A DNA stretch of 64,000 nt from a phage (GCA_024875585.1 GCA_024875585.1_4107.1), one strand, 5' to 3'. Counted from the first letter of the stretch, positions 28,105 to 38,931 are shown. A program made the numbers and translations. The notes: a model not told the origin generated them from the sequence alone.

Positions 28105-28134
28105 GTAGTTTACAAATCTTTACAATTGCCGGTA

Positions 28135-28225
28135 TTGACTTAAAATGTCAGTACTGGCATAATGTATCTATTGAAACGAACAATTTGGCCCACGGGGTGC
28201 GGGAGTGTATCTATAGAAAAAGTAG
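28135..28225 (+). ncRNA. candidate small-RNA unit, rightward member of a convergent pair
   Basis: TTGACT(28135-40)-17nt-CATAAT(28158-63), then gtatctattgaaacgaacaatttggCCCACGGGGTGCGGGAGTGTATCtatag; no ORF. Confidence 0.35.
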
Positions 28226-28308
28226 TTTAGTACAGTTACAATTGTGCACCCGGTGGGTTAGCTGTTGTCATGGGATATATTATACCAGTACTGGATAGTG
28301 CTGTCAAT
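28226..28308 (-). ncRNA. candidate small-RNA unit, leftward member of a convergent pair
   Basis: minus reading TTGACA(28308-03)-18nt-TATAAT(28284-79), then atatcccatgacaacagctaaCCCACCGGGTGCacaattg. Confidence 0.35.
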
Positions 28309-28352
28309 ACCTTTTTACTATTCAGTACTGAAAACTATTTGATAAAAAGTAC

Positions 28353-28380
28353 TTGCAAACTATGTTTAAAGGCGTATAAT
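28353..28380 (+). promoter_or_regulatory. early-type promoter driving structured leader
   Basis: TTGCAA(28353-58)-16nt-TATAAT(28375-80); upstream ttcagtactgaa palindrome. Confidence 0.6.
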
Positions 28381-28386
28381 GTTTTA

Positions 28387-28466
28387 CATCAGGACGGGGA
28401 ATGAAATAAGTAACTTCCCGTTAAGTAGCCCAGGAGTAAGGCATACGAAAAACTCCCCTGATAAAA
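28387..28466 (+). ncRNA. structured leader / candidate RNA motif (three-way junction), copy 1
   Basis: P1 atcagg/cctgat, P2 acgggga/ttcccgt, P3 ggagt/actcc, helices abutting; near-identical copy at 38447. Confidence 0.45.
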
Positions 28467-28470
28467 TAGT

Positions 28471-28498
28471 TTGACAATTGTTTTTAAAAGCGTATAAT
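28471..28498 (+). promoter_or_regulatory. second sigma70-type promoter after the structured leader
   Basis: TTGACA(28471-76)-16nt-TATAAT(28493-98). Confidence 0.55.
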
Positions 28499-28530
28499 AC
28501 TTACATCAACTACTGAATGAGGGTTACAAA

Positions 28531-29142
28531 ATGAAAACTATCACTACTACTACTTATGTTATGGATTTTTCTGAATTGAACGCAGAACAAAAAACGTCAG
28601 CTATCGAACTGGTTCGGGAACGTGAAAAAAACTTAAACGACGATTATTTTTCTGAAAGTGAAATTGAATACTATAAAGAAACAGTATTGCCGGAATATGG
28701 CATTAATGAAGCTGAAATACAATTCAGTGGTTTTTGGTCGCAGGGTGACGGTGCATCAATTAGTACTGACCACGTTGACGCAGTGAAGTTTTTACGTAAG
28801 GTAAGAGCATTAACTAAGTATCGCTCAATCCGTCACCTGCTGAATGAAGATGATTTGGCGATGAGTGTAAAGCGTTCTCACTCCCGCTACTCACATGAGA
28901 ACACTGTAAGCGGGTACATTGAATCGGCTTACACTGATTTAACCGCAAAACAAGAAACGTTAGTTAATGAGCTTGAGGAACTACTCACTGATACTATTCG
29001 TGAATTATCCCGCAAGTTGTACCGTGATTTAGAAAATGCATATGAGGATCAATTCACTACTGAAAACATCGTATCACTGATTGAGGGTAACGAATATCAA
29101 TTCAATGTTATTGATGGCGTAGTAGAATCAATTGCATATTAA
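28531..29142 (+). CDS. hypothetical acidic protein (203 aa)
   Basis: SD tgaggg; contains FSGFWSQGDGASISTD motif that I cannot place in a family. Confidence 0.85.
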   Translation: MKTITTTTYVMDFSELNAEQKTSAIELVREREKNLNDDYFSESEIEYYKETVLPEYGINEAEIQFSGFWSQGDGASISTDHVDAVKFLRKVRALTKYRSIRHLLNEDDLAMSVKRSHSRYSHENTVSGYIESAYTDLTAKQETLVNELEELLTDTIRELSRKLYRDLENAYEDQFTTENIVSLIEGNEYQFNVIDGVVESIAY

Positions 29143-29149
29143 AAAGTAC

Positions 29150-29209
29150 TTGCAAACTAAGTTTAAAAGCGTATAATACTTTATATCGAGGCGGGGAATG
29201 GTTCCCCGC
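29150..29209 (+). promoter_or_regulatory. early-type promoter + leader hairpin
   Basis: TTGCAA(29150-55)-16nt-TATAAT(29172-77); gcggggaa-tgg-ttccccgc 29191-209. Confidence 0.65.
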
Positions 29210-29227
29210 TCAAACGAGGATTTAAAA

Positions 29228-29467
29228 ATGGCTAGTACTAAAACTTACAACGGACACAAAAACAAAACTCATTGGAATGTAAGCCTTTGGATCAATAACG
29301 ATGAATCATTGTACCGGATTGCTCAAAATTGCATCGCTCAAAGTAAAACGAAAGATATTGCAGCGGAATTTATGTACCGCAGATTAAAAGCCAACGGTAT
29401 TACTACAACGCCGGACGGATTCAAGTATAGCACTACGGCGATCCGTGCTGCAATGGTTGGAATGTAA
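29228..29467 (+). CDS. hypothetical small protein, paralog of 27196..27435
   Basis: ATG 29228 after cgagga; NGHKNKTHWNVSLWINNDESLYR...AIRAAMVGM. Confidence 0.85.
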   Translation: MASTKTYNGHKNKTHWNVSLWINNDESLYRIAQNCIAQSKTKDIAAEFMYRRLKANGITTTPDGFKYSTTAIRAAMVGM

Positions 29468-29486
29468 TATTCAGTACTATAACAAT

Positions 29487-29506
29487 GGCGGGGAATAGTT
29501 CCCGCC
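29487..29506 (+). promoter_or_regulatory. GGGAA/TTCCC hairpin between genes
   Basis: ggcggggaa-tag-ttcccgcc followed by ttta. Confidence 0.45.
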
Positions 29507-29524
29507 TTTACTAAGGGTTATCTA

Positions 29525-29806
29525 ATGAGTAAAGTAATAAAGTACAATGTGTTAAGCAAATCATTGTCTATCAGTGAATGCACCGATGGTTTTTGGCTGT
29601 ACGATGAAACGCGTGGCATGAATTTAGCTATGCAGGAGAAAACTGCTGATGCGGCATATCTTAAAGCACTGGAATACTACCAGAAGCGTTTAACGGAAGT
29701 AGAAAACGATTATAATAACCTTAAAGCGAAAGTGGATAATTTCGTTGGTCAATTCGTTGACGATGACGAGGGGCACTACTGCGACCGTTGTGGATCTTAC
29801 AGTTAA
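29525..29806 (+). CDS. hypothetical protein (93 aa)
   Basis: SD taaggg; C-terminal HYCDRCGSYS. Confidence 0.75.
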   Translation: MSKVIKYNVLSKSLSISECTDGFWLYDETRGMNLAMQEKTADAAYLKALEYYQKRLTEVENDYNNLKAKVDNFVGQFVDDDEGHYCDRCGSYS

Positions 29807-29823
29807 GTACTAAGGATTATATA

Positions 29824-30027
29824 ATGAGTGATTTAATTGAACGTATCAAAGAGCTTGAAGAAAAAGAATTGCAGTTGATCGGTTTACAGAATAAAATCTA
29901 TCATGATTTGGGGAGTTTTATCAATGCGTGGGATAATGGCGATCCTGATGCGTTACCTGCTAACCGCCAGGCAATGATCAATGATGTGCGTGGTGTCTTT
30001 GAGTATGTTTTAAAGCAATTAAATTAA
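29824..30027 (+). CDS. hypothetical small protein (67 aa, coiled-coil-like)
   Basis: ATG 29824 after taagga. Confidence 0.7.
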   Translation: MSDLIERIKELEEKELQLIGLQNKIYHDLGSFINAWDNGDPDALPANRQAMINDVRGVFEYVLKQLN

Positions 30028-30036
30028 AAAAAGTAC

Positions 30037-30096
30037 TTGCAATTAGTTTTTAGTACTGTATAATGTTTTACATAGAGGGGAGAAATGGTTCTCCCT
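30037..30096 (+). promoter_or_regulatory. early-type promoter + leader hairpin
   Basis: AGTACTTGCAA-16nt-tAGTACTGTATAAT(30059-64); aggggagaa-atgg-ttctccct 30076-96. Confidence 0.65.
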
Positions 30097-30114
30097 GGTA
30101 ATGAGGAAAATACA

Positions 30115-30336
30115 ATGGCTAATATCACTACTCTTTCTCAACTGGAAGCACTGGTTAAATCTATGCGGGAACATGCCGACAAAATCGGCGTAAAAGATCC
30201 AGCCGTTTGCTTCTGCGACGAAATGAATGATGATACATTGGTAATAGCAGAAGTTCAGGACGTTTCTAACTATTCATCGCGTTACACTGGCGGCGTAGCA
30301 AATAAAGGTGACTTCTGTTTATACCTTACAAAATAA
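30115..30336 (+). CDS. hypothetical small protein (73 aa)
   Basis: ATG 30115 after tgaggaa. Confidence 0.75.
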   Translation: MANITTLSQLEALVKSMREHADKIGVKDPAVCFCDEMNDDTLVIAEVQDVSNYSSRYTGGVANKGDFCLYLTK

Positions 30337-30341
30337 CAACG

Positions 30342-30368
30342 AGGGGATCAATTGATCCCCTTTCTTTT
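30342..30368 (+). terminator. intrinsic terminator
   Basis: aggggatca-at-tgatcccct + tttcttttt. Confidence 0.7.
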
Positions 30369-30371
30369 TCA

Positions 30372-30469
30372 GTACTGAATAATTTAATAGACGGATCTAT
30401 GCACCCGGTGGGTTAGTGACTGTTTCGTCTTTATGTAGTAATTATGCCAGTACTGGATGCACTTGTCAA
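30372..30469 (-). ncRNA. candidate small-RNA unit (own leftward promoter + CCCAC-core transcript)
   Basis: minus reading TTGACA(30469-64)-17nt-CATAAT(30446-41), then tactacataaagacgaaacagtcactaaCCCACCGGGTGCatagatccgtcta...; runs into the palindromic terminator at 30342. Confidence 0.35.
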
Positions 30470-30502
30470 CAACTATTTTTCAAATACTTTTTATTAAAAT
30501 AC

Positions 30503-30556
30503 TTGCAATTAGTTTTTAAACGCGTATAATGTTTTGCATAGGGGGAGCGGTTCCCC
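30503..30556 (+). promoter_or_regulatory. early-type promoter + leader hairpin
   Basis: TTGCAA(30503-08)-16nt-TATAAT(30525-30); gggga-gcggt-tcccc 30541-56. Confidence 0.6.
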
Positions 30557-30577
30557 TGGTAACTAAGGAATAAGAAA

Positions 30578-30814
30578 ATGGTCGAACAAATCAAATCAAC
30601 GTCTTCGAATGTAACGGGAACGGTAGCACACTTTACTTGTGATGAATCGCGGGGCGTTCCCTATTGTGCTGTACATGTAAACACTGAGGGTAACTACTGG
30701 TTTACGGTTTACGGATCATATTCATTTGGACGGCCAGGGCATCAAAAAATTCTGGATAAAGTACAACCAACGGGTAAAAATATCACTGCCGAAATGTTTT
30801 ATAAAAACAAATAA
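30578..30814 (+). CDS. hypothetical small protein (78 aa)
   Basis: SD taagga. Confidence 0.8.
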   Translation: MVEQIKSTSSNVTGTVAHFTCDESRGVPYCAVHVNTEGNYWFTVYGSYSFGRPGHQKILDKVQPTGKNITAEMFYKNK

Positions 30815-30831
30815 AAGTACTTGATAATAGT

Positions 30832-30888
30832 TTGACTATGTATTACAGTACTGTATAATAGATACATAAGGGGCGAATAGTTTGCCCC
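30832..30888 (+). promoter_or_regulatory. sigma70-type promoter + leader hairpin
   Basis: TTGACT(30832-37)-16nt-TATAAT(30854-59); ggggcgaa-tag-tttgcccc 30870-88. Confidence 0.6.
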
Positions 30889-30908
30889 TAGTACAAAGGG
30901 GAAACATT

Positions 30909-31139
30909 ATGCCAGGCCGAATAGTTTTACTTAACGCTGGAAGTACTACACAACTCCTTAACGCCGTGTATTATGATATTGAAACGAGCGTCAATCTTAT
31001 CAGTACTGTAGTATTGTTGGACACTGGAAAGGTCGCAAATGATAAAGCGATTGCAGGTATACTAACGGATCTTAAACCAGGTTGCAGTACTCCAATAACT
31101 TTAAATGATAAAGTGTTTAATATTTTACTAACTGATTAA
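30909..31139 (+). CDS. hypothetical small protein (76 aa)
   Basis: ATG 30909 after aaagggga. Confidence 0.7.
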   Translation: MPGRIVLLNAGSTTQLLNAVYYDIETSVNLISTVVLLDTGKVANDKAIAGILTDLKPGCSTPITLNDKVFNILLTD

Positions 31140-31145
31140 GTACAT

Positions 31146-31168
31146 AGCCCACCTGGTGGGCTTTTTTG
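31146..31168 (+). terminator. intrinsic terminator
   Basis: agcccac-ctg-gtgggct + tttttt. Confidence 0.75.
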
Positions 31169-31211
31169 TTTTTGTAGTACTGCATACTTTGAAAATAGTT
31201 TTAAAAAAGTA

Positions 31212-31239
31212 GTTGACATTACCGCAAAAAGGCGTAGAA
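31212..31239 (+). promoter_or_regulatory. sigma70-type promoter
   Basis: TTGACA(31212-17)-16nt-TAGAAT(31234-39). Confidence 0.55.
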
Positions 31240-31245
31240 TGTATT

Positions 31246-31330
31246 ACATCAAGACGGGGAGCACTAAGTAGACCGCCAGTAAGTCGAACGAAAAACTGGA
31301 CACGTCGAGAAAACTTTGATACACTAACTA
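31246..31330 (+). ncRNA. structured leader, diverged third copy of the 28387/38447 motif
   Basis: keeps ctaagtagacc and acgaaaaa; P3 is ccagt/actgg instead of ggagt/actcc; P1 atcaag/ctttgat. Confidence 0.35.
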
Positions 31331-31363
31331 ACATAAACTAAACTTTAATTGAGGATTTATAAA

Positions 31364-31846
31364 ATGGCTAATGTAAAATCATTTCTGAAAGCACTGATTT
31401 CTAACGATACTGCTATTGCTGCTGAATTGCTGGCGGATCTGGATAGCGATACCATGAAAGCGGTACGCAACAATTTTAACATTGCGTACAGTGAAGCTAA
31501 AGAACTGCAAGCCAAAAAGATAGCAGAACTGGAAGAACAGAAAAAAGCCCGTGAAGAAGAATTACAAGCAACTATTGAAAGTATTCAGGCGGCGGTTGCA
31601 GGGTTGGATCTGGATGTAGTTGTAGAAATGGCACATAAAGCCCTGGCAGTTAAGTACGGTGAAGATAAGCCAGTATCTAAACCTAAAAAATGGATTCAGG
31701 AACGCGTAACGGTTGTTCTTGATAATGGCGAGGAACATTTAATTCCCGTGCGTGGTAACTGCATTGCGGTAGTTCTGGATGCTATCAAAGAAAGCGGATT
31801 GACTCGCGAGGAATGGATCGAAGCTCACCGCAAGATTGAAGCATAA
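31364..31846 (+). CDS. hypothetical protein (160 aa, helical/coiled-coil middle)
   Basis: ATG 31364 after tgagga. Confidence 0.8.
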   Translation: MANVKSFLKALISNDTAIAAELLADLDSDTMKAVRNNFNIAYSEAKELQAKKIAELEEQKKAREEELQATIESIQAAVAGLDLDVVVEMAHKALAVKYGEDKPVSKPKKWIQERVTVVLDNGEEHLIPVRGNCIAVVLDAIKESGLTREEWIEAHRKIEA

Positions 31847-31867
31847 CAATTAAAGTACTGAATCAAT

Positions 31868-31895
31868 AGCCCACTTTTTATAGTGGGCTTTTTTG
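31868..31895 (+). terminator. intrinsic terminator
   Basis: agcccact-ttttat-agtgggct + tttttt. Confidence 0.75.
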
Positions 31896-32049
31896 TGCTT
31901 ATCGTTTACCATGCCACCAGCACCGCCTAGAATCGATTCTAACGCATTAAACTGATTATCTGATGAATCGCCCTAGCTGGTGGCGTTAATGCCGTTAGAA
32001 CGCGATTGAGGATGTTTAAAGTATTTTTGCAAAAAGTAATAAAAAGTAC

Positions 32050-32077
32050 TTGCACGATTAAGAGATTAGAGTATAAT
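32050..32077 (+). promoter_or_regulatory. early-type promoter
   Basis: AGTACTTGCAC-16nt-TATAAT(32072-77). Confidence 0.6.
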
Positions 32078-32122
32078 TAATTACATCAAGACAAGACACC
32101 TTAACTAACTGAGGATATAAAG

Positions 32123-32275
32123 ATGAATACTTATGAACTGGATTGTTTTACTTTACAAGTAATGTCAGTATGCAGTAAAAAAGATTGGTCATCAAAGGAA
32201 TTTAAAGCAGTTATTGCGTGTGCAAAACACGGCAAGACTATCAATGAAACGGCATCAATCATTGATAAACTTTAA
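32123..32275 (+). CDS. hypothetical small protein (50 aa; below cutoff), paralog of 36122..36265
   Basis: ATG 32123 after tgagga; ...HGKTINETASIIDKL resembles ...DGKSVKDTVKIIRKM. Confidence 0.55.
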   Translation: MNTYELDCFTLQVMSVCSKKDWSSKEFKAVIACAKHGKTINETASIIDKL

Positions 32276-32283
32276 AAAATAGT

Positions 32284-32312
32284 TTGACAATAGTTTTAAG
32301 TACTGCGATAAT
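32284..32312 (+). promoter_or_regulatory. sigma70-type promoter
   Basis: TTGACA(32284-89)-17nt-GATAAT(32307-12). Confidence 0.55.
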
Positions 32313-32345
32313 ACATACATCAACTACTGAATAGGAATAAAAACA

Positions 32346-32573
32346 ATGGCTATCGTAATCACTCGCGTAACTGGTACTACTGGCACTGCTTCAACTGTTG
32401 CTGTAATTACTAATAAGAAAGGTGCAGAATTACATTTTGCAATGGATAAATGGGCCGTTAATGAGTTTGGTCAGTGGGCAAGTGTAGAATACATTGAAAC
32501 CTATCAAGTGCCATCGATTAGCTTAACTGATTTAGGTGTAGAACGTATCCTTTGTCTGGATGAATTAAATTAA
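32346..32573 (+). CDS. hypothetical small protein (75 aa)
   Basis: SD tagga; MAIVITR.. N-terminus like 32886 and 35841. Confidence 0.75.
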   Translation: MAIVITRVTGTTGTASTVAVITNKKGAELHFAMDKWAVNEFGQWASVEYIETYQVPSISLTDLGVERILCLDELN

Positions 32574-32581
32574 AAAAGTAC

Positions 32582-32642
32582 TTGCAAAGTAAATCGAATA
32601 AAGTATAATACATTACATCAAGGGGAGAAAATGGTTCTCCCC
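32582..32642 (+). promoter_or_regulatory. early-type promoter + leader hairpin
   Basis: TTGCAA(32582-87)-16nt-TATAAT(32604-09); ggggagaa-aatgg-ttctcccc 32622-42. Confidence 0.65.
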
Positions 32643-32660
32643 ACTAAGAGGAAACTAAAA

Positions 32661-32804
32661 ATGAAAACTTGTCAATGTGGTAAAAAATCTATTACTGGTT
32701 TGAAACGGGGCGTTTCACTTTGCCAGTACCATTATAATTTACAAGTATGGGGTAAAGAATGGGCCGACCAGGTTGAAGCATCAAAGAAAGCAAAAAGTAA
32801 GTAA
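32661..32804 (+). CDS. hypothetical Cys-rich small protein (47 aa; below cutoff)
   Basis: ATG 32661 after aagagga; MKTCQCGKK...SLCQYHYN. Confidence 0.55.
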   Translation: MKTCQCGKKSITGLKRGVSLCQYHYNLQVWGKEWADQVEASKKAKSK

Positions 32805-32805
32805 A

Positions 32806-32885
32806 ATTATTATCACAGTACTATTGACATAGATTGATAGTACTGGCATAATAGATTTTATCAAGACAACTAAGAGGAAATTAAA
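32806..32885 (+). repeat. about 80-bp promoter cassette, copy 1 of 4
   Basis: tatcaCAGTACTATTGACAtagattgATAGTACTGgCATAATagattttatcaagacaactaagaggaaattaaa; TTGACA 32824-29, CATAAT 32847-52; 9-bp inverted arms 32816-24 / 32837-45. Confidence 0.7.
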
Positions 32886-33098
32886 ATGGCTATCATTATT
32901 AAAAACAAAGTTAATAAGACTATCGTTAAACTGGCAGAAGTGAAAGAAGGTTATAAAGTATCTTGGGAGGGTTTTTATCGGACGTTTACTGATATTGACG
33001 ATGCAATCAATTACTACACTGATACGGTTAAAAACTTTGTTCGTGCTGATGTGGTTATGGCAGTGGCAACATATAAAGCATCAAAAGAAAGTAAGTAA
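32886..33098 (+). CDS. hypothetical small protein (70 aa), paralog of 35841..36020
   Basis: MAIIIKNK...FYRTFTDIDDAINYYTDTVKNF vs MAIIAKTE...YVREYETVDEAFESYIRQVNKA. Confidence 0.8.
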   Translation: MAIIIKNKVNKTIVKLAEVKEGYKVSWEGFYRTFTDIDDAINYYTDTVKNFVRADVVMAVATYKASKESK

Positions 33099-33100
33099 AA

Positions 33101-33180
33101 AATATTATCACAGTACTATTGACATAGATTGATAGTACTGGCATAATAGATTTTATCAAGACAACTAAGAGGAAATTAAA
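33101..33180 (+). repeat. promoter cassette, copy 2 of 4
   Basis: near-identical to 32806-32885; TTGACA 33119-24, CATAAT 33142-47. Confidence 0.7.
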
Positions 33181-33525
33181 ATGGCTAACATCAATACTAT
33201 AGCAGCACAAAATATCAACCTGTCTTCTGTTGAAGTTGTACACATTGCCGCCCGGCGTTGGTTCCAGGCGTCTTATGGTAATACGTATTTCTCTTTAACG
33301 GTAGATGTTGAAATCAATGGCGAATTTATTGAAGTAGTAAACGTGCCGTTCCAATATGGCTACGGGGATCATTTTGACACTGTAGCAATGGAAGAATTAA
33401 GCAAGGTTATTAATATGGAAGGTAAAGAGTTTTTACGCGGTTCTTATCTTTCCCGTTTTTGCCGTGATAATAATATTACTGTTTATAGTTCTGTTAGTGA
33501 TGTTAAACGCAAAAAAGATCTTTAA
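33181..33525 (+). CDS. hypothetical protein (114 aa), paralog of 39222..39545
   Basis: YGNTYFSL..V..FQYGYGDHF...DVKRKKDL vs NGNTYHSC..FTYGYGTQG...DVKRKKDM. Confidence 0.85.
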   Translation: MANINTIAAQNINLSSVEVVHIAARRWFQASYGNTYFSLTVDVEINGEFIEVVNVPFQYGYGDHFDTVAMEELSKVINMEGKEFLRGSYLSRFCRDNNITVYSSVSDVKRKKDL

Positions 33526-33605
33526 TTAGCTTTACTTTATGCAGATACTTTGATACAGTGTCTGCATAGGGGAAAGAAATTAAATCAACTTAAGAGGATA
33601 GTAAA

Positions 33606-33875
33606 ATGAAAAATATCAGTACTTTAATCGATGCAGGTACACATGTTCGTCGGTCTATGGTTGCAACCAGTTCTACAAAACAAGTAGCGAGCGGTTATCT
33701 TGTATTTGTGCACGATGGTAAACTCCTGGAACGTTCAATCAATTTTGATGTTAAAAACAATTGCCGTTTTATTATCTTTAAGCGTGAGCAATATAAAATT
33801 GATTTACCAGCGAAGCCCATTAGTGGGGCGTACAACGTTCAATCATTGTTTGAGCGTCAACCATACACCTATTAA
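33606..33875 (+). CDS. hypothetical protein (89 aa)
   Basis: SD taagagga. Confidence 0.75.
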   Translation: MKNISTLIDAGTHVRRSMVATSSTKQVASGYLVFVHDGKLLERSINFDVKNNCRFIIFKREQYKIDLPAKPISGAYNVQSLFERQPYTY

Positions 33876-33926
33876 TCAAAACAACGTTAGCGGTCGATTT
33901 AGGCCGCTTATACTGGGGATTATATA

Positions 33927-34199
33927 ATGAATACTAATCAAGTACTGAATGAGATTGAAAGCATCATTAAACCGATGAAGCGTACTGATGCTATGTTAAC
34001 ACCGGAAGAATGCCGCCTTTATGAGCGTTACAGCGTCGAACAAGTCCAGGCAATGGCTATGGCTACCCCAGCCGTTAAACAGCCTGAGAACGCGTTACAG
34101 GACGTTACAGGGGATTATATCATCAATCCAGTACTAGGGAAGATGGAAGCAATCACCGAAGAACAAAAAGACTACTTAAGCCAGTACTTAAAAGGTTAA
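33927..34199 (+). CDS. hypothetical protein (90 aa)
   Basis: SD tgggga. Confidence 0.7.
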   Translation: MNTNQVLNEIESIIKPMKRTDAMLTPEECRLYERYSVEQVQAMAMATPAVKQPENALQDVTGDYIINPVLGKMEAITEEQKDYLSQYLKG

Positions 34200-34204
34200 T
34201 TAAT

Positions 34205-34414
34205 ATGCTTACTGTACAGGATAAGATCGACATCTTAAAGGTTAATATGTATGTGATTGATGCAGATCCTGAAAAAGTATTTGCATACGATGATTCTAAT
34301 CGTAGTCCTTTTTATTGTAGTCATGTAGTTGGATATGTGCCGTTATCGTATGTTATCGAAAGAGTGGTTGATTCAGCATACAAACATTTTTTAGAAAATA
34401 GTACTTGCAATTAG
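34205..34414 (+). CDS. hypothetical protein (69 aa)
   Basis: in-train ORF; its 3' end overlaps the next promoter. Confidence 0.65.
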   Translation: MLTVQDKIDILKVNMYVIDADPEKVFAYDDSNRSPFYCSHVVGYVPLSYVIERVVDSAYKHFLENSTCN

Positions 34415-34464
34415 TTTTTAGTACTGTATAATGTTTTACATGAAGGGGGGAAATGATTCTCCCC
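34405..34464 (+). promoter_or_regulatory. early-type promoter + leader hairpin
   Basis: TTGCAA(34405-10)-16nt-TATAAT(34427-32); gggggaaa-tga-ttctcccc 34445-64. Confidence 0.6.
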
Positions 34465-34482
34465 AATAACAGGAGAAACAAA

Positions 34483-34635
34483 ATGAAACAATACAACGCT
34501 CGGTTTGATGTTACTATCGGCAACGGCAAAGGTCAATTCTCTTTCAGTACTCGTAAGAGTTATACAGAAAACTTCTTGCGTAATTGTGCACTGACCGCCG
34601 CACAAATTAAACATTATTTTCAGGCTAAAAAATGA
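34483..34635 (+). CDS. hypothetical small protein (50 aa)
   Basis: ATG 34483 after caggag. Confidence 0.6.
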   Translation: MKQYNARFDVTIGNGKGQFSFSTRKSYTENFLRNCALTAAQIKHYFQAKK

Positions 34636-34721
34636 AATCATTAGCTTATTATAGCTCGGCCCTGGTCGGTGCATTGATCGCGGCATTGTTAGTAGCTTAT
34701 CTATTCTTTATGGTGATTTAA
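34632..34721 (+). CDS. 29-aa hydrophobic single-TM peptide (below cutoff)
   Basis: ATGA overlap; MKSLAYYSSALVGALIAALLVAYLFFMVI. Confidence 0.45.
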   Translation: MKSLAYYSSALVGALIAALLVAYLFFMVI

Positions 34722-34859
34722 ATGAATCCTAACGGTATAATTTACAGTACTCCTAAAACGAAAGCAGATAAAGCGGAAGCACGTAAAGCGAAAGTAAAGG
34801 AGTACATCAAGCAAGGTATGACACGAAAGGCGGCGATTCTAAAAGCTAAAAATAAATGA
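34722..34859 (+). CDS. 45-aa basic peptide (below cutoff)
   Basis: ATG directly abuts previous stop; MNPNGIIYSTPKTKADKAEARKAKVKEYIKQGMTRKAAILKAKNK. Confidence 0.45.
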   Translation: MNPNGIIYSTPKTKADKAEARKAKVKEYIKQGMTRKAAILKAKNK

Positions 34860-34866
34860 AAAAAAG

Positions 34867-34898
34867 TGGTTGACTTCGGTCAGCCATTTTGCTATTAT
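34867..34898 (+). promoter_or_regulatory. bifunctional terminator hairpin / promoter
   Basis: tggttgac-ttcg-gtcagcca+tttt; TTGACT(34870-75)-17nt-TATTAT(34893-98). Confidence 0.6.
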
Positions 34899-34904
34899 AT
34901 ATTC

Positions 34905-34960
34905 ATTGAGAGATAGCTCACTAGCCCACAGGGTGCGGGAGTGTATCTATTATATAAGTA
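34905..34960 (+). ncRNA. candidate short transcript with CCCAC-N-GGGTGCGGGAGTGTATC core
   Basis: attcattgagagatagctcactagCCCACAGGGTGCGGGAGTGTATCtattatataag; core 34925-36; no ORF. Confidence 0.35.
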
Positions 34961-35002
34961 TTGAGTACTGAAAACTATTTTAAAAGTACATGTAGAAAGT
35001 AC

Positions 35003-35061
35003 TTGTAAACTATGTTTAAAGGCGTATAATGTTTTACATCGAGAGCGGGAAACGGTTTCCC
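35003..35061 (+). promoter_or_regulatory. early-type promoter + leader hairpin
   Basis: TTGTAA(35003-08)-16nt-TATAAT(35025-30); gggaaa-cgg-tttccc 35047-61. Confidence 0.6.
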
Positions 35062-35082
35062 CTAGTAATAAGGAATAAAATC

Positions 35083-35424
35083 ATGACTATTGCAATTGTA
35101 CAATCTAACTTTGAAAACGAAATCATCGCCCAAGCACTGCGTTTAAATGATGGTCGGGCCGAAATTAATTACGGTTTCAATTCAGGCGGTTGTGAAAAAT
35201 ATCAGTACTTTATAACTGCTGATGGCGGTGTCCTGGGTATTAATACAGTTATTGTAAACATTCAGAAAATTAATTTCAATGATCCAGACGATAGCCAGTT
35301 TTACATTGTAGGCGTAGACGTGAACTATGAGGATGACTCACTAACTGATGATTACACTGGCGAGAAGTTAGAAAGTGCATACGGTGAAGATGATTATCAG
35401 TCAGTACCGGAAGATTTTGAATAA
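35083..35424 (+). CDS. hypothetical acidic protein (113 aa)
   Basis: ATG 35083 after taagga. Confidence 0.8.
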   Translation: MTIAIVQSNFENEIIAQALRLNDGRAEINYGFNSGGCEKYQYFITADGGVLGINTVIVNIQKINFNDPDDSQFYIVGVDVNYEDDSLTDDYTGEKLESAYGEDDYQSVPEDFE

Positions 35425-35438
35425 TATTAAAAAATAGT

Positions 35439-35528
35439 TTGACAATAGATTATAGTACTGTATAATAGTTTACATCAAGGGCGACGGGAAGTTTTAAAAA
35501 CTTCCCTATAGGGAGAATAGTTCTCCCC
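35439..35528 (+). promoter_or_regulatory. sigma70-type promoter + tandem leader hairpins
   Basis: TTGACA(35439-44)-16nt-TATAAT(35461-66); hairpin A 35486-506, hairpin B gggagaa-tag-ttctcccc 35511-28. Confidence 0.65.
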
Positions 35529-35548
35529 ACTAACAGAGAGAAAACAAA

Positions 35549-35761
35549 ATGGCTAATATCTGCACTGTACTGAAAAATGCAAAACAAGTTTTATTTTCTG
35601 ATCACGATCATTTAAACAAGGATATTACTGGCGTTCGGAATATCAAAGATGTAAAACGTGTTATGGGTATCTATTGCAATATGAAACGTGTCGGCACGTT
35701 CGGTAATAAATTTCTATACCAGGCGGGGGATTACAATTTTACACTGACTATCATTAACTAA
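35549..35761 (+). CDS. hypothetical small protein (70 aa)
   Basis: SD agagag. Confidence 0.75.
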   Translation: MANICTVLKNAKQVLFSDHDHLNKDITGVRNIKDVKRVMGIYCNMKRVGTFGNKFLYQAGDYNFTLTIIN

Positions 35762-35840
35762 AAATATTATCACAGTACTATTGACATAGATTGATAGTAC
35801 TGGCATAATAGATTTTATTAAAACAACTGAGGAAATTAAA
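35762..35840 (+). repeat. promoter cassette, copy 3 of 4
   Basis: TTGACA 35781-86, CATAAT 35804-09; near-identical to 32806-32885. Confidence 0.7.
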
Positions 35841-36020
35841 ATGGCTATCATCGCAAAAACTGAAATCATCGGCCTGGATTCTATCATCATGACGTTTGAA
35901 GATCAAAAAGGTATGTATGTAGTTTCCTATGGTGATTATGTTCGGGAGTATGAAACGGTAGACGAAGCCTTTGAAAGTTACATTCGCCAGGTGAATAAAG
36001 CATACGACGATTACCGCTAA
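35841..36020 (+). CDS. hypothetical small protein (59 aa; below cutoff), paralog of 32886..33098
   Basis: MAIIAKTEIIGLDSII... Confidence 0.65.
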   Translation: MAIIAKTEIIGLDSIIMTFEDQKGMYVVSYGDYVREYETVDEAFESYIRQVNKAYDDYR

Positions 36021-36030
36021 AATATATTAC

Positions 36031-36075
36031 CAGTACTATCAAAGCTATTGACAACGTTTGATAGTACTGTATAAT
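36031..36075 (+). promoter_or_regulatory. promoter enclosed by 13-bp inverted repeat
   Basis: CAGTACTATCAAA(36031-43)...TTTGATAGTACTG(36057-69); TTGACA 36048-53, TATAAT 36070-75. Confidence 0.6.
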
Positions 36076-36121
36076 AAGTTTTATCAACTGTAGTTAACTT
36101 AACAAAAGAGAGAGAAACAAA

Positions 36122-36265
36122 ATGATCGCACTGGATTCATTCATCGATGCAGTTCTGGCAAAAACTGGCGAGGATCTGACCGCAGAACAATACGCAATGA
36201 TCGAGCAATGCCAGCAAGACGGTAAATCGGTGAAAGATACTGTTAAGATTATCCGCAAGATGTAA
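36122..36265 (+). CDS. hypothetical small protein (47 aa; below cutoff)
   Basis: SD agagagag; MIALDSFIDAVLAKTGEDL... Confidence 0.55.
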   Translation: MIALDSFIDAVLAKTGEDLTAEQYAMIEQCQQDGKSVKDTVKIIRKM

Positions 36266-36272
36266 GATTATA

Positions 36273-36300
36273 AGCCCATTAGTTAACGCTGGTGGGCTTT
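36273..36300 (+). terminator. terminator-like hairpin
   Basis: agcccat-tagttaacgctg-gtgggct + tt. Confidence 0.5.
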
Positions 36301-36371
36301 AATCATTTACCCTATACAATGCCAGTACTAAACCGTTTATCTCGTTAGAATGCATTACAGGACGTTTGACA

Positions 36372-36569
36372 ATGATTAGCATGAAATCAGTACAAAAACA
36401 AATAGAAACATTATCAAAAATTAAACGTAAACAGTACTCATTAGAATATAATATCAATGGTAACTATCATCTAATGAAAGAGAATAATTTTATCGTCATT
36501 GATGAATCATTGCAAATTATTAGTATAGTACTGAAAGCATTAATTAATGATAGAAAAAGGTTAAAATAA
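36372..36569 (+). CDS. hypothetical small protein (about 65 aa)
   Basis: first ATG of the ORF (track start 36366 is TTG); weak SD. Confidence 0.5.
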   Translation: MISMKSVQKQIETLSKIKRKQYSLEYNINGNYHLMKENNFIVIDESLQIISIVLKALINDRKRLK

Positions 36570-36826
36570 TGGCAGTAGGATTCGCGAAAGATGGAGCCGA
36601 GCAAGATGAGATTAACGCAGTTATTCAAGCCGCCGTTAACCACGCTAGAAAGCAAATTAACGCACAAATAGAATCACTGATACATTGCCTCGACTGCGGC
36701 GATAAAATCCCTGAGAATCGCCGACAGGCTGTTAAGGGATGTAAGTACTGCATAACCTGCCAGGAAGATCATGATAGTACTTTTAAAAGAGATCCGCGTA
36801 ATTGTTGGCATAGATCTATGAGATAA
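36569..36826 (+). CDS. TraR/DksA-family C4 zinc-finger protein
   Basis: CLDCGDKIPENRRQAVKGCKYCITCQ matches C-x2-C-G-x2-IP-x2-RR...C-x2-C. Confidence 0.75.
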   Translation: MAVGFAKDGAEQDEINAVIQAAVNHARKQINAQIESLIHCLDCGDKIPENRRQAVKGCKYCITCQEDHDSTFKRDPRNCWHRSMR

Positions 36827-36833
36827 AAAGTAA

Positions 36834-36861
36834 TTGACAGTACTGAAAGATAGTGTATAAT
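36834..36861 (+). promoter_or_regulatory. sigma70-type promoter
   Basis: TTGACA(36834-39)-16nt-TATAAT(36856-61). Confidence 0.6.
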
Positions 36862-36890
36862 GTTTTATATCTTAACTGAGGATAGAAATC

Positions 36891-37247
36891 ATGGGAATAC
36901 AACATATCACGCGGACCACTGACAATGGCGAGATCACTGGTTATCAAGTACAGGGCAAAGTAGCACAATTGCAGTACTGGTTTGTTAAACGTGGAATCAT
37001 TGCACCGGATCTTGATTATGACCGTGTAGCGTTTATTGATTCTCTTTATGTTGATCCTGATAGTCGGGGCAATGGTGAAGGTAACGAATTAATGAATGCC
37101 TTTATTGATGCTGCCGATGATTCAGATTGTATCATTTTAGAATGCGATACGGGAGAAGATAACGCCTTCAATCTTAAAGAATGGTACGAAGGTTTCGGAT
37201 TCGAAGTACTGATCGATAGTGAATATCCTATCATGATTTTATCATAG
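36891..37247 (+). CDS. GNAT-family N-acetyltransferase
   Basis: LYVDPDSRGNGEGNELMNAF (R-G-x-G-x-G motif A) and WYEGFGFE. Confidence 0.6.
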   Translation: MGIQHITRTTDNGEITGYQVQGKVAQLQYWFVKRGIIAPDLDYDRVAFIDSLYVDPDSRGNGEGNELMNAFIDAADDSDCIILECDTGEDNAFNLKEWYEGFGFEVLIDSEYPIMILS

Positions 37248-37261
37248 TACTAAAAAAGTAA

Positions 37262-37318
37262 TTGACAGTACTATCAGATAGTGTATAATGTTTTACATAG
37301 AGGGGAAACATCTTCCCC
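37262..37318 (+). promoter_or_regulatory. sigma70-type promoter + leader hairpin
   Basis: TTGACA(37262-67)-16nt-TATAAT(37284-89); ggggaa-acatc-ttcccc 37302-18. Confidence 0.65.
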
Positions 37319-37336
37319 TACTAAGAGGAAATGAAA

Positions 37337-37525
37337 ATGGAAAAATTATCAAGTATTTTAGTACAAGATGATTTTGGTAATCCTGGAAGTGCTATCATTG
37401 TTCGGGGTAATAAAGCAACGTTTGTTATTGCTGGTGGACCTGTACAGCGTAGCATTAAAAACAATGCTGTTACTATTAATAATGTACGCTATCGCTTAGA
37501 TAAAGAATTGATTCATAAACTTTAA
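37337..37525 (+). CDS. hypothetical small protein (62 aa)
   Basis: ATG 37337 has better SD spacing (aagagga) than 37331. Confidence 0.7.
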   Translation: MEKLSSILVQDDFGNPGSAIIVRGNKATFVIAGGPVQRSIKNNAVTINNVRYRLDKELIHKL

Positions 37526-37532
37526 AAAGTAC

Positions 37533-37622
37533 TTGCAATTAGTTTTTAGTACTGTATAATAGTTTACATGAAAGGCAACGGGAAGTTTAAAAACTTCCCT
37601 AAAGGGGGAAATGATTCTCCCC
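37533..37622 (+). promoter_or_regulatory. early-type promoter + tandem leader hairpins
   Basis: TTGCAA(37533-38)-16nt-TATAAT(37555-60); hairpin A 37580-99; hairpin B 37604-22. Confidence 0.65.
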
Positions 37623-37640
37623 ACTAAGAGGAAAGAAAAA

Positions 37641-37853
37641 ATGCAAGGTCAACTAATCGTTCGTAAATGGTCTGATACTAATGAAAAACCGTGGGATGTA
37701 CAATACATCGGACCGGATGGGGTATCACGTTATCAGCCAGGCGTAACGCATAGTACTGAGCAATATGCCGCCGCTCATCGTGAACGCCTGTTAGAATCTA
37801 TGCAACAGGGTTTAGGTGAAAAATTCATTCAAGATCATTGGCTGAAAGATTAA
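37641..37853 (+). CDS. hypothetical small protein (70 aa)
   Basis: ATG 37641 after aagagga. Confidence 0.75.
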   Translation: MQGQLIVRKWSDTNEKPWDVQYIGPDGVSRYQPGVTHSTEQYAAAHRERLLESMQQGLGEKFIQDHWLKD

Positions 37854-37860
37854 AAAGTAC

Positions 37861-37920
37861 TTGTGTAGTATAGAAAATAAAGTATAATGTTTAATACAGG
37901 AAGGGGAATAGTTCCCCTCC
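37861..37920 (+). promoter_or_regulatory. early-type promoter + leader hairpin
   Basis: TTGTGT(37861-66)-16nt-TATAAT(37883-88); ggaaggggaa-tag-ttcccctcc 37899-920. Confidence 0.6.
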
Positions 37921-37939
37921 TAACAAAAAGGAAAGTAAC

Positions 37940-38113
37940 ATGATTCATGTAGAATTGTCAGTACTGAGAGATTTGTTTTATCGGATGGGTACTACTGGCG
38001 AATATCCGAAGGGTGATACTGCAAAACTTTTTGTATCTCTCGACTTATGGCAACGCGAACAATTAGTAATGTCGTGGCGTAAAGGTAAAGCAGATCGCGA
38101 GGTGAAAGCATGA
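37940..38113 (+). CDS. hypothetical small protein (57 aa; below cutoff)
   Basis: ATG 37940 after aaagga; MIHVELSVLRDLFYRMG... Confidence 0.55.
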   Translation: MIHVELSVLRDLFYRMGTTGEYPKGDTAKLFVSLDLWQREQLVMSWRKGKADREVKA

Positions 38114-38259
38114 AAGAATTTTTATTCGAAGTAGTTTTTATTGGTGTAAGTAGTCACCAATTGATTCGCTCAAGTGGTTATAATGTTTGCCAGGCATGGA
38201 ATAACATTAAACAAATGTACCCGAACGCTATCACATATCGCAACCCAAAACAAGTTTAA
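38110..38259 (+). CDS. hypothetical small protein (49 aa; below cutoff)
   Basis: ATGA overlap with 37940..38113; MKEFLFEVVFIGVSSHQ... Confidence 0.5.
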   Translation: MKEFLFEVVFIGVSSHQLIRSSGYNVCQAWNNIKQMYPNAITYRNPKQV

Positions 38260-38270
38260 AAATAATTAAA

Positions 38271-38307
38271 AAAAGGATTGACTTCGGTCAGTCCTTTTTG
38301 CTATTAT
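38271..38307 (+). promoter_or_regulatory. bifunctional terminator hairpin / promoter
   Basis: aaaaggattgac-ttcg-gtcagtcctttt; TTGACT(38278-83)-18nt-TATTAT(38302-07). Confidence 0.6.
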
Positions 38308-38313
38308 ATATTC

Positions 38314-38370
38314 ATTGAGAGATAGCTCACTGACCCATAGGGTGCGGAAGTGTATCTATTATATGCTGGT
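38314..38370 (+). ncRNA. candidate short transcript with CCCAC-type core
   Basis: attcattgagagatagctcactgaCCCATAGGGTGCGGAAGTGTATCtattatatgc; core 38334-45. Confidence 0.35.
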
Positions 38371-38412
38371 GGGTGTATTATCTAGTACTGAAAACTATTT
38401 GATAAAAAGTAC

Positions 38413-38440
38413 TTGCATTGTACTTAGAATCAAGTATAAT
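38413..38440 (+). promoter_or_regulatory. early-type promoter driving structured leader
   Basis: TTGCAT(38413-18)-16nt-TATAAT(38435-40). Confidence 0.6.
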
Positions 38441-38446
38441 GTTTTA

Positions 38447-38526
38447 CATCAGGACGGGGAACGAAATAAGTAAATCCCTGTTAAGTAGCCCAGGAGTAAG
38501 GCATACGAAAAACTCCCCTGATAAAA
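38447..38526 (+). ncRNA. structured leader / candidate RNA motif (three-way junction), copy 2
   Basis: same P1/P3 as copy 1; P2 acgggga/tccctgt re-pairs with a shifted G-U. Confidence 0.45.
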
Positions 38527-38530
38527 TAGT

Positions 38531-38559
38531 TTGACAATAATTTTAAGTACTGATAAAAT
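38531..38559 (+). promoter_or_regulatory. second promoter after structured leader
   Basis: TTGACA(38531-36)-17nt-TAAAAT(38554-59). Confidence 0.45.
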
Positions 38560-38591
38560 AATCACATCAACTACTGATAAGGAAACATAAA

Positions 38592-38867
38592 ATGCGGGTT
38601 CTTCTGACAGCTAACGAAATCGAGCAAGTACTTACTACTAACCTGGAACAATGGAAACGTGAAGCAGATATCCAGGCGGTTCAATTGTTAAATGAGAAGT
38701 TAACGCCGGATGATTTAAGTAAGATTGTAGATCCTCAATTCTACGAAGATATTCACGACACCGCGTTAAGCGTCGAGGATGTACTAGATAAGCACTACAT
38801 TGATACTAATTTACAGGGTTACGGTCGTAAAAATTTTATTACTATTCACGACATTTACAATAATTAA
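38592..38867 (+). CDS. hypothetical protein (91 aa)
   Basis: SD taagga. Confidence 0.8.
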   Translation: MRVLLTANEIEQVLTTNLEQWKREADIQAVQLLNEKLTPDDLSKIVDPQFYEDIHDTALSVEDVLDKHYIDTNLQGYGRKNFITIHDIYNN

Positions 38868-38870
38868 GTA

Positions 38871-38931
38871 TTGACAAAGTATCTTAGTACTGTATAATAG
38901 TTTACATCAAGTGAGGGGAATGGTTCCCCTC
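38871..38931 (+). promoter_or_regulatory. sigma70-type promoter + leader hairpin (cassette copy 1 of 3)
   Basis: TTGACA(38871-76)-16nt-TATAAT(38893-98); gaggggaa-tgg-ttcccctc 38913-31. Confidence 0.65.

Follow-up and report, generated by a model that had tools for sequence, protein, structure and literature searches.

The subject of this work is a group of three RNA elements encoded on the + strand of a phage DNA stretch of 64,000 nucleotides (GCA_024875585.1 GCA_024875585.1_4107.1; the whole stretch is called the window below). The three elements very probably belong to a single family of conserved, non-coding RNAs in virulent phages, and the core of this family consists of a hairpin and an H-type pseudoknot. 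An earlier note on this DNA had described them as a three-copy leader RNA, folded into a three-way junction of the helices P1, P2 and P3 with a single-stranded joiner. The sequences, coordinates and promoters on which that description was built are all present in the window, as established by direct reading and a consensus promoter scan, and the fold, the covariation and the promoter scan agree with a structured, non-coding leader RNA located 3' of early promoters. The element is not, however, an oddity of one genome. BLAST searches and a pattern scan find the family in about 550 deposited phage genomes, including that of T7.

Membership of the three copies was examined with a covariance model, R1, built from 17 T7-like sequences only, without any window sequence. 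Run on the 64-kb window with the filters off, R1 matches only the three copies: copy 3 at 31265-31300 (28.5 bits, E 9e-5), copy 1 at 28393-28459 (26.7 bits) and copy 2 at 38453-38519 (24.4 bits). The E-values of the three matches are 1e-4 to 8e-4, and the next best match in the window scores 8.9 bits. The 15-mer ACATCAGGACGGGGA, searched with at most three mismatches, occurs five times in the window against 0.5 expected, and the three copies carry it with 0-1 mismatch. At the pseudoknot pair called N/N' below, copies 1 and 2 have GCC/GGC and copy 3 has GAC/GUC, with the flanking G-C and C-G pairs present.

The motif is an RNA family new to Rfam 15 and to the literature searched; older T7 papers could mention conservation of the sequence. 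The Rfam 15 covariance models, applied at their gathering thresholds, match nothing in the whole window. With E up to 10 the only match within 28340-28540 is Methylobacterium-1, a chance hit (15.3 bits against a threshold of 40, E 1.7), and positions 400-1000 of T7 give no match. The proposal that the element belongs to no known riboswitch or ribozyme class is upheld by these negative scans of the window and T7. A hammerhead ribozyme was rejected: its core CUGAUGA/GAAA is not in the junction, as had been noted and as reading and the negative Rfam scan confirm, and the junction itself is not conserved across the family. A self-cleaving ribozyme was likewise discarded, as no ribozyme model matches. 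We know of no report of cleavage of T7 A1 run-off transcripts over decades of handling. The full-text literature search, which included the sequence itself, returned no description of the motif, only papers that print T7 template sequences. The records of T7 and phiA1122 have no annotation at the position of the motif, and some other records in the BLAST tables have spurious "hypothetical protein" calls over it.

The conserved core

Copy 1 and the promoters on either side of it are arranged as follows (S1 and S2 are the two stems of the pseudoknot).

28353..28380, + strand: promoter of copy 1, early sigma-70, TTGCAA-16-TATAAT (consensus scan)
28386..28466, + strand: copy 1, whole element with P1, P2 hairpin and pseudoknot (reading, minimum-free-energy fold, R1 match)
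28388..28393, + strand: P1 of copy 1, AUCAGG, pairing with CCUGAU at 28457-28462 (reading and minimum-free-energy fold)
28394..28421, + strand: P2 hairpin of copy 1, ACGGGGA 28394-400 / UUCCCGU 28415-21 (reading and minimum-free-energy fold)
28422-32, + strand: joiner of copy 1, UAAGUAGCCCA (reading)
28425..28430, + strand: 5' strand of S1 in copy 1, GUAGCC, with the partners GGC 28440-42 and UAC 28444-46
28433..28456, + strand: S2 of copy 1 (P3 of the earlier note), GGAG 28433-36 / CUCC 28453-56
28471..28498, + strand: promoter 3' of copy 1, consensus sigma-70, TTGACA-16-TATAAT (consensus scan)

The transcript of copy 1 probably starts at about 28386-28388. The loop of P2 has 14 nucleotides and the 3' end UAAC. 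S2 encloses loop 2 (UAA), the 3' strand of S1 (GGC-A-UAC, 28440-46) and the A-rich loop 3 (GAAAAA, 28447-52). The pair 28429-28441, in alignment columns 48-62, is the N/N' pair.

Base pairs were counted in 54 matches (47 distinct) aligned to R1; the counts that follow refer to the 47 distinct sequences. In P2, 94% of cells are paired and each of the four modelled pairs is changed on both sides, examples being CCGG/CCGG, CCAG/CUGG, CCAC/GUGG, CGGG/CCCG and GGGA/UUCC. P3 is paired in 96% of cells, with double changes in four of its five pairs; across the family its variants are CCUG/CAGG, CUUG/CAAG, CCAG/CUGG, GGAG/CUCC, UCAG/CUGA and CAAC/GUUG. By these counts P2 and P3, both drawn in the earlier note, are real helices with true compensatory changes.

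The joiner is not single-stranded, as had been supposed. Its sequence G-U-A-G-N-C pairs with G-N'-C-x-U-A-C in the loop of P3, and the two strands form S1 of an H-type pseudoknot. The N/N' pair is A-U in 36 sequences, C-G in 5, U-A in 5 and G-C in 1, and it is never unpaired. The types of this pair differ within the T7-like phages and also within the Asteriusvirus-like phages, which points to several independent double changes. Because R1 does not describe the S1 pairing, the alignment is unbiased towards it. Controls in which the register was slid have 19-38% of cells paired, against 95.6% for the proposed structure, and an alignment made with MAFFT only, with one sequence per lineage, gives the same pairing picture.

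Part of the evidence on S1 weighs against this structure. Most S1 pairs are invariant, and the support comes from a single covarying pair with conserved G-C pairs on both sides; another pair of S1 (A-U) is disrupted in 11 of the 47 sequences. The invariance is due in part to the search patterns. Two relaxed scans, in which the invariant positions of the pseudoknot were freed, yielded no real variants of the invariant S1 pairs. The extra loci that they gave score at most 17.7 bits with R1, and one of them, L052, was rejected as a member since it has a coding-looking context and no promoter. The S1 duplex alone is weak (-1.9 to -4.4 kcal/mol) and probably depends on contacts of loop 3 and on stacking. 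In other H-type pseudoknots an A-rich loop 3 packs into the groove of the first stem.

The core, as predicted from the aligned sequences, is about 55 nucleotides long and has the order P2 hairpin - N - UAA - S1(5') - 1-2 nt - S2(5') - (A)UAA - S1(3') - GAAAAA - S2(3'). About 25 unpaired or loop nucleotides of the motif are near-invariant. Salmonella phage KE18 (locus L083, 359-434) has a hairpin of about 20 nucleotides inserted in loop 2 and a duplicated GUCA; insertions of this kind are often typical of real structured RNAs. In the Munch-type jumbo phages the leader of the second promoter repeats the 5' strand of S1 (CCCCGUAGACAGC; L041 at ~1300-1315, with equivalent positions in L087 and L124). 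Within long transcripts this repeated strand could pair, in place of the original one, with the loop strand of the pseudoknot upstream.

The topology and loop lengths of the pseudoknot (S1 of 5-6 bp, loop 1 of 1-2 nt, loop 2 of 3-4 nt, an A-rich loop 3 of 6 nt and S2 of 4-5 bp) match those of preQ1-I-like pseudoknots, as that class is generally known, and the conservation of the loop sequences is very high. Both properties would suit a ligand-binding aptamer, either a riboswitch-like sensor or a sponge for a host metabolite or signalling nucleotide. An aptamer is nevertheless improbable: the motif has no expression platform, neither a terminator nor a Shine-Dalgarno sequence overlaps it, a promoter follows it, the downstream genes are mutually unrelated, and the riboswitch models of Rfam give no match even with E up to 10.

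The remaining helix of the three-way junction, P1, stands on a different footing. The minimum-free-energy structure calculated by RNAfold is exactly the drawn junction in copy 1 (-18.7 kcal/mol, z -1.6) and in copy 2 (-20.1 kcal/mol, z -2.7), but copy 3 is as stable as shuffled sequence (z 0.06), and the junction finds no support there. P1 (AUCAGG/CCUGAU) is identical in all c1-type copies and so is without covariation. Other closing helices are GACG/CGUC in copy 3, GCGGC/GUCGC in L041 and CGGC/GCCG in Munch and L124. P1 is present only in myovirus and jumbo-phage lineages, where it closes the domain and buries the 5' end; the T7-like phages have no P1 and carry a separate 5' hairpin instead. 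Since P1 varies or is absent by lineage, the three-way junction represents a lineage-specific dressing of the hairpin-plus-pseudoknot core.

Copies 2 and 3

The other two copies and their promoters are arranged as follows.

38413..38440, + strand: promoter of copy 2, TTGCAT...TATAAT, a member of repeat family D1 (reading)
38446..38526, + strand: copy 2, with P1 38448-53 / 38517-22 and P2 38454-60 / 38475-81
38485-90 with 38500-02 and 38504-06, + strand: S1 of the copy 2 pseudoknot, the S2 of which is 38493-96 / 38513-16
38531..38559, + strand: promoter 3' of copy 2, TTGACA-17-TAAAAT, followed by gene 38592 (consensus scan)
31213..31240, + strand: promoter of copy 3, TTGACA-16-TAGAAT (consensus scan)
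31246..31320, + strand: copy 3, a variant without P2 (reading; R1 match)
31316..31344, + strand: weak promoter-like site 3' of copy 3, TTGATA-17-TAAACT, 9/12 matches

Copy 2 is the same as copy 1 at an offset of +10060, except for the 3' strand of P2, UCCCUGU (38475-81), in which the G-U pair has moved, as the earlier note observed. Its description of copy 3 is also correct on reading: the joiner and the P3 loop are kept, P3 is CCAG/CUGG, the outer helix is AUCAAG/CUUUGAU, and P2 is missing. Copy 3 retains UAAGUAGAC and ACGAAAAA. In its S1, GUAGAC (31268-73) pairs with GUC (31283-85) and AAC (31287-89); S2 is CCAG 31276-79 / CUGG 31296-99 and loop 3 is GAAAAA (31290-95). The closing pairs are GACG 31253-56 / CGUC 31303-06 and AUCAAG 31248-53 / CUUUGAU 31314-20.

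The promoter at 28471 begins 13 nucleotides past the last modelled P3 column of copy 1 and is followed by gene 28531 (open reading frame 28531-29142). The promoter of copy 3 is located directly 3' of an intrinsic terminator (31146-31162). The promoter-like site at 31316..31344 overlaps the 3' strand of copy 3 P1, and gene 31364-31846 comes next, followed by a terminator at 31868-31889.

A coding function of the copies was rejected. The small open reading frames that overlap them (28270-28404, 38315-38473, 31213-31341 and, on the - strand, 31128-31334) run across the promoters. A mini open reading frame, AUG-AAA-UAA, is found inside the P2 loop of copy 1 (28402-28410); copy 2 has ACG in place of its AUG, and it is therefore probably meaningless. 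A scan for transfer and transfer-messenger RNAs found none.

Distribution of the family

BLAST with the 85-nucleotide copy 1 gives 45 records, which comprise Asteriusvirus-like phages and, at about 90% identity, phages of about 145 kb that belong to other groups: muut (Justusliebigvirus), A73 and W70 (Vequintavirinae), outra and EmilieFrey. In muut the element is located upstream of a homologue of window gene 38592. In A73 it is upstream of a different gene, the window homologue of which (32346) has no element directly upstream. Both phages have a complete second promoter 3' of the element, and that of A73 carries an ordinary 5' hairpin leader.

Copy 3 was the route to the T7-like members. BLAST with this copy gives 50 records, in which its 35-nucleotide core is found in Yersinia T7-like phages at ~553, and it also finds the jumbo phages Munch, 7t3, fENko-Kae01 and Hallingskeid. 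In IMG/VR a pattern scan gives 32 loci, most of them on T7/T3/K1F-like contigs of 37-45 kb, where the motif is some hundreds of bases inside the left end, and T7 itself is among these loci. The T7 motif occupies positions 534-589, which are +37..+92 of the A1 transcript, between the annotated starts of A1 (498) and A2 (626), and its 3' end lies one nucleotide before the -35 element of A2. BLAST with the T7 version gives 494 records, from phages of Escherichia, Klebsiella, Salmonella, Yersinia, Enterobacter, Citrobacter, Serratia, Aeromonas, Edwardsiella, Pantoea and Kosakonia, one of the phages being a member of the Melnykvirinae.

The BLAST records span the Studiervirinae, the Melnykvirinae, Asteriusvirus-like and other jumbo phages, Justusliebigvirus and the Vequintavirinae. 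Apart from T7, the carriers amount to about 500 Autographiviridae records, with several jumbo myoviruses and some rV5-like phages in addition. A diverged copy in which P3 is CAAC/GUUG is present in the Vibrio T7-like phages VP4 and L149. It reads UAAGUAGCA-AU-CAAC-AA-GGCGUAC-GAAA-GUUG and abuts a TTGACT -35 element (421-460 in L148 / L150, Vibrio phage VP4, and 401-440 in L149). These Vibrio members score only 7.5 bits with R1, and the model thus underestimates the spread of the family. The hosts overall are Enterobacterales, Aeromonas and Vibrio. The motif was not found in Pseudomonas phage gh-1 or in Salmonella phage SP6. Among 185,579 species genomes of bacteria and archaea, the pattern scan found it nowhere except on one phage-like contig of 2.7 kb; the scan also gave one chance match, in which N and N' are not complementary. 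A 7.8-kb record labelled Enterococcus phage IME_EF3 (H166, PQ520054.1, 1708-1762) contains a T7-type motif at 87% identity and is probably a mislabelled or chimeric record.

The motif always points in the direction of transcription. Its position relative to the genes is shuffled, and the nucleotide identity of the module between otherwise unrelated phage groups is about 90%. In records that start at the physical end of the genome the copies are within the terminal repeat, at a distance of 3.4-7 kb from the left end. The genes downstream of the motif are mutually unrelated, and Pfam and PHROGs assign them only to families of unknown function (phrog_5162, phrog_27871, phrog_14947 and DUF7249).

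Position in the early transcription unit

The motif is located within the first ~25-90 nucleotides of an early host sigma-70 transcript, and this position is well supported. In the instances with a script-recognised upstream promoter, the distance from the end of the -10 element to the sequence UAAG is 57-61 nucleotides in T7-like phages, 35-41 in jumbo phages and the c1 type, and 24 in the c3 type. A second promoter almost always follows. In 42 of 51 distinct instances a promoter matching at 10/12 positions or better, nearly always with a perfect TTGACA, starts 1-41 nucleotides past the last modelled P3 column, and six further instances have 9/12 matches downstream. The distance is one nucleotide in most T7-like phages and 13 in the window. 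Another promoter-bearing repeat upstream of copies 1 and 2 results in three tandem promoters, as in the A1/A2/A3 cluster of T7. Terminators precede copy 2 (38270), copy 3 (31146) and the copy of A73.

This close spacing bears on the question whether the conserved entity is DNA, either an UP-like or factor-binding site of the next promoter or just a scar that recombination has left between the repeated promoters and that is functionless as RNA. The motif ends one nucleotide before the TTGACA -35 element in most T7-like phages, which puts GAAAAAC at the position of a proximal UP subsite, and the flanking repeated promoters could mediate the exchange of cassettes. A DNA-level element is, however, highly improbable, being contradicted by the covariation: there are compensatory changes in three helices, including four Watson-Crick types at one pseudoknot pair. 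Moreover, the spacing to the next -35 element varies from 1 to 41 nucleotides, some copies have no good promoter after them, the orientation to transcription never changes, and the core persists across phage families.

Two other leader sequences were seen beside the motif. A metagenomic phage contig (L030) has a canonical boxA, CGCTCTTTAACAA, at 4166-4178, 27 nucleotides 3' of the motif, and no second promoter between the motif and the first gene. The A2-A3 interval of T7-like phages (~640-700 in T7, which is L043; also L014, L015, L019, L025 and others) contains a second conserved block, GGTGTCTTCTAGGTGACTTAAGCGCACCAC, which R1 does not match and which may be a further leader RNA element.

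The early leaders of the window

A 4-kb stretch around the element matches 178 phage records. The best matches, at 88-95% identity, are the 350-kb Escherichia coli jumbo phages of the 121Q / PBECO4 / G17 group (Asteriusvirus-like). The early region of the window extends from 25 to 44 kb, and one strong sigma-70 promoter (AAAGTACTTGCAA...GTATAATGTTTTACATCGAGAG) is present there in 23 or more copies; the promoter of copy 1 belongs to this 23-copy promoter repeat family, D1. The typical early unit consists of the promoter, a short 5' hairpin GGGGAA-NNNN-UUCCCC, a ribosome-binding site and a small gene. P2 in the window copies is the counterpart of the ordinary 5' hairpin with which most early leaders of this phage are equipped. 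The standard early transcripts (25375-44182, 23 promoter copies; for example 26622-26715 and 27788-27881) begin with CAUCGAGAG, followed by the GGGA.. hairpin. This start is nearly the same as the initial transcribed sequence of T7 A1 (AUCGAGAGGGACACGG), which suggests that a jumbo myovirus and T7 have an early promoter and leader design in common, beyond the pseudoknot motif.

The resemblance of P2 to the standard hairpin raises the possibility that the motif is an element of mRNA stability or processing, that is, an elaborated 5' hairpin that protects against 5'-end-dependent attack by RNase E or directs a cut. P2 is placed like the GGGGAA-NNNN-UUCCCC hairpin of at least 12 other early promoters and resembles it, P1 pairs the transcript nucleotides +3 to +8, and the motif is the only leader structure of the gene of copy 3. 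A stability element is still an unlikely explanation. A plain hairpin suffices for this purpose, and about 25 invariant nucleotides and a pseudoknot maintained from T7 to the jumbo phages would be left unexplained; furthermore, the T7-like motif starts about 37 nucleotides from the 5' end, behind another hairpin, and the transcripts of the second promoter are without the motif.

Possible function

The motif does not depend on which gene lies downstream. Its restriction to certain hosts, its fixed orientation, its absence from bacterial genomes and the variety of the genes that follow it suggest an RNA that acts through something host-specific, and we infer that it works through a conserved host component. 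The position at the head of the unit and the invariable downstream promoters favour action in cis on the elongation complex. The boxA antitermination sequence that comes after the motif in L030 and the similar size and position of the triplex-containing put RNA of HK022 point the same way. The motif would fold co-transcriptionally as the RNA leaves the polymerase and would then act on the host elongation complex that made it, its target being RNA polymerase itself or an associated factor. As a result, the first early elongation complexes would be kept moving through downstream promoters, pauses, Rho and terminators, a role analogous to that of the put RNA of phage HK022. Such a put-like effect in cis is the favoured reading; it is put forward tentatively, by analogy, and should be regarded as possible rather than likely.

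Several observations speak against it. The motif is present on just 3 of the at least 23 early promoters in the window. Copy 3 is part of a single-gene unit that ends at a good terminator 570 nucleotides downstream, which is odd for an antiterminator. Transcripts from the second promoter do not contain the motif, which is therefore dispensable in cis for the downstream gene. In classical experiments in vitro, host polymerase initiated at A1 terminates well at the T7 early terminator, which speaks against strong read-through of the put type. Finally, the motif has no sequence relationship to put, and R1 reaches at most 12.7 bits (E 0.27) on the whole HK022 genome.

A decoy acting in trans is nearly as likely as the put-like effect in cis. 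The motif would then be a self-contained early small RNA that titrates or blocks a conserved RNA-binding protein of the host or an RNA-sensing defence factor in the first minutes of infection. It could be released by RNase III at R0.3 in T7 and by cleavage in the A/U-rich spacer after P1 in the myoviruses, or the domain could persist on the leader. A strong promoter of its own always drives the module, a complete second promoter comes after it, and the downstream mRNA can do without the motif; the genome of the window has three copies, each with a strong promoter, and the module has been exchanged between unrelated phage groups at about 90% nucleotide identity. The P1 helix of the myovirus versions closes the domain and hides the 5' end, the ~25 near-invariant unpaired or loop nucleotides suggest a specific macromolecular partner, and the motif is restricted to phages of related hosts. 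A trans-acting RNA is, on the other hand, difficult to reconcile with the lack of a terminator or defined 3' end and, in the T7-like versions, of P1; the stable short species and its candidate target are both hypothetical, and the preference for the first promoter of the unit is left unexplained.

A direct relation to host sequences was also considered. When the 85-nucleotide element was compared by blastn (word size 11, E up to 1) with 5,426 complete E. coli genomes, neither strand gave a match. On this basis host mimicry or an antisense effect on the host was rejected, within the sensitivity of BLAST, which short seed pairings may escape.

Whether it acts on the elongation complex in cis or as a host-factor decoy, the motif is present in the first transcripts of unrelated virulent phages. 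It might, with some doubt, represent either a third independent class of protein-free RNA that reprograms the host elongation complex, after put and the EAR RNA of Bacillales, or such a decoy. If this is true, the motif has gone unnoticed for decades in the T7 A1 leader, where it is directly testable. The genome of T7 is among the most thoroughly studied, and transcription biochemists use its A1 promoter as a standard tool; a conserved pseudoknot 37 nucleotides into the A1 transcript, common to 350-kb jumbo phages and rV5-like phages, would surprise specialists. It would point to a common, unrecognised requirement that phages reliant on the host RNA polymerase have in the first seconds of an infection. 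The motif is a short element in a tractable model phage, and the covarying pair of the pseudoknot provides both disruptive and compensatory mutants. The motif is also useful as an annotation marker for early regions and genome ends.

Other features of the window

Combined terminator/promoter units are found at 34863-34890, 38270-38299, 41279-41306 and 43570-43597, with a variant at 28135-28163. Each consists of a G+C-rich hairpin with a TTGACT -35 element in the stem and a TATTAT -10 element after it. A conserved block of about 60 nucleotides (CCCAYAGGGTGCGGGAGTGTATCTAT) comes next in every case; it also occurs at 26271-26290 and might constitute one more leader RNA element.

The window contains 11 Chi sites (GCTGGTGG) where 0.49 would be expected, an enrichment of more than 20-fold: 3596, 25595(-), 25607, 31914(-), 31976, 36288, 37430, 38365, 41884, 43461 and 43685. 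Nine are on the + strand, mostly in the intergenic spacers of the early region, and one is just upstream of the copy 2 promoter. In the related jumbo phages L041, L087 and L124, Chi lies within the spacer of the promoter 3' of the motif. The enrichment may protect the entering genome end from RecBCD.

Two further repeat families consist of five copies of ~144 nucleotides, ~450 nucleotides apart (60384-62375), and of eight 50-nucleotide blocks ending in GGAACAAACTATCA (46057-49634). Both look like paralogous small genes.

Comparison with known systems

The motif resembles the preQ1-I riboswitch, as known in general, in being an H-type pseudoknot with an A-rich loop 3 and similar stem and loop lengths. 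It differs in having an extra upstream hairpin and no associated queuosine genes. Assignment to preQ1-I was rejected, as there is no Rfam match at E up to 10, loop 2, (A)UAA, is without the ligand-pairing C, and a promoter takes the place of the expression platform.

Like the nut sites of lambda and the boxA and boxB signals of rrn operons, which belong to early or rRNA transcripts, the motif is a leader RNA signal in transcripts read by the host polymerase. Unlike them, it has no boxA consensus and no pentaloop hairpin of the boxB type, and the phages that bear it share no N-like protein. The T7 boxA presumably lies ~250 nucleotides further downstream of the motif.

The pseudoknot of T4 gene 32, which is absent from Rfam (PMC10690425), is also of the H-type and also located at the 5' end of a phage mRNA leader. 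It serves one gene and is bound by the product of that gene, whereas the motif precedes unrelated genes, with another promoter in between.

ToxI is a short pseudoknotted RNA with an A-rich segment, and RNAs of this type can serve phages as decoys for a host protein. ToxI consists of tandem repeats of 34-36 nucleotides beside the toxin gene and is processed by the toxin, whereas the motif has one unit per locus. A type III antitoxin of the ToxI kind was rejected, since there is no tandem array and no toxN-like gene, and the neighbouring open reading frames match only families of unknown function.

EAR, an RNA associated with eps in Bacillales, is a cis-acting leader RNA with a pseudoknot that modifies elongation complexes. 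It is larger than the motif, has multiple stems, lies inside a Gram-positive bacterial operon and is present in Rfam, where the motif has no match.

The put RNA is about 70 nucleotides long, is composed of two helical domains with a triplex, lies immediately 3' of an early promoter, has a -10-like element associated with it, and needs no phage protein (PMC9378689). An RNA of the put class would be expected to bind the zinc-binding domain of the beta-prime subunit and to suppress pausing and termination without protein factors. Membership of the motif in the put class was rejected on sequence: the best score of R1 on the whole HK022 genome, with filters off, is the 12.7 bits (E 0.27) given above, and the one match that was read, a weak partial match at 28167-28181 (9.2 bits), is not put-like. 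The put RNA has two stem-loops and occurs in lambdoid temperate phages, whereas the motif is a hairpin and an H-type pseudoknot, its second domain not being a simple stem-loop, and is found only in virulent phages. In size and position the motif and HK022 putL/putR are similar: each is a phage RNA of about 60-70 nucleotides, located near the start of early transcripts made by the host polymerase and independent of the downstream gene.

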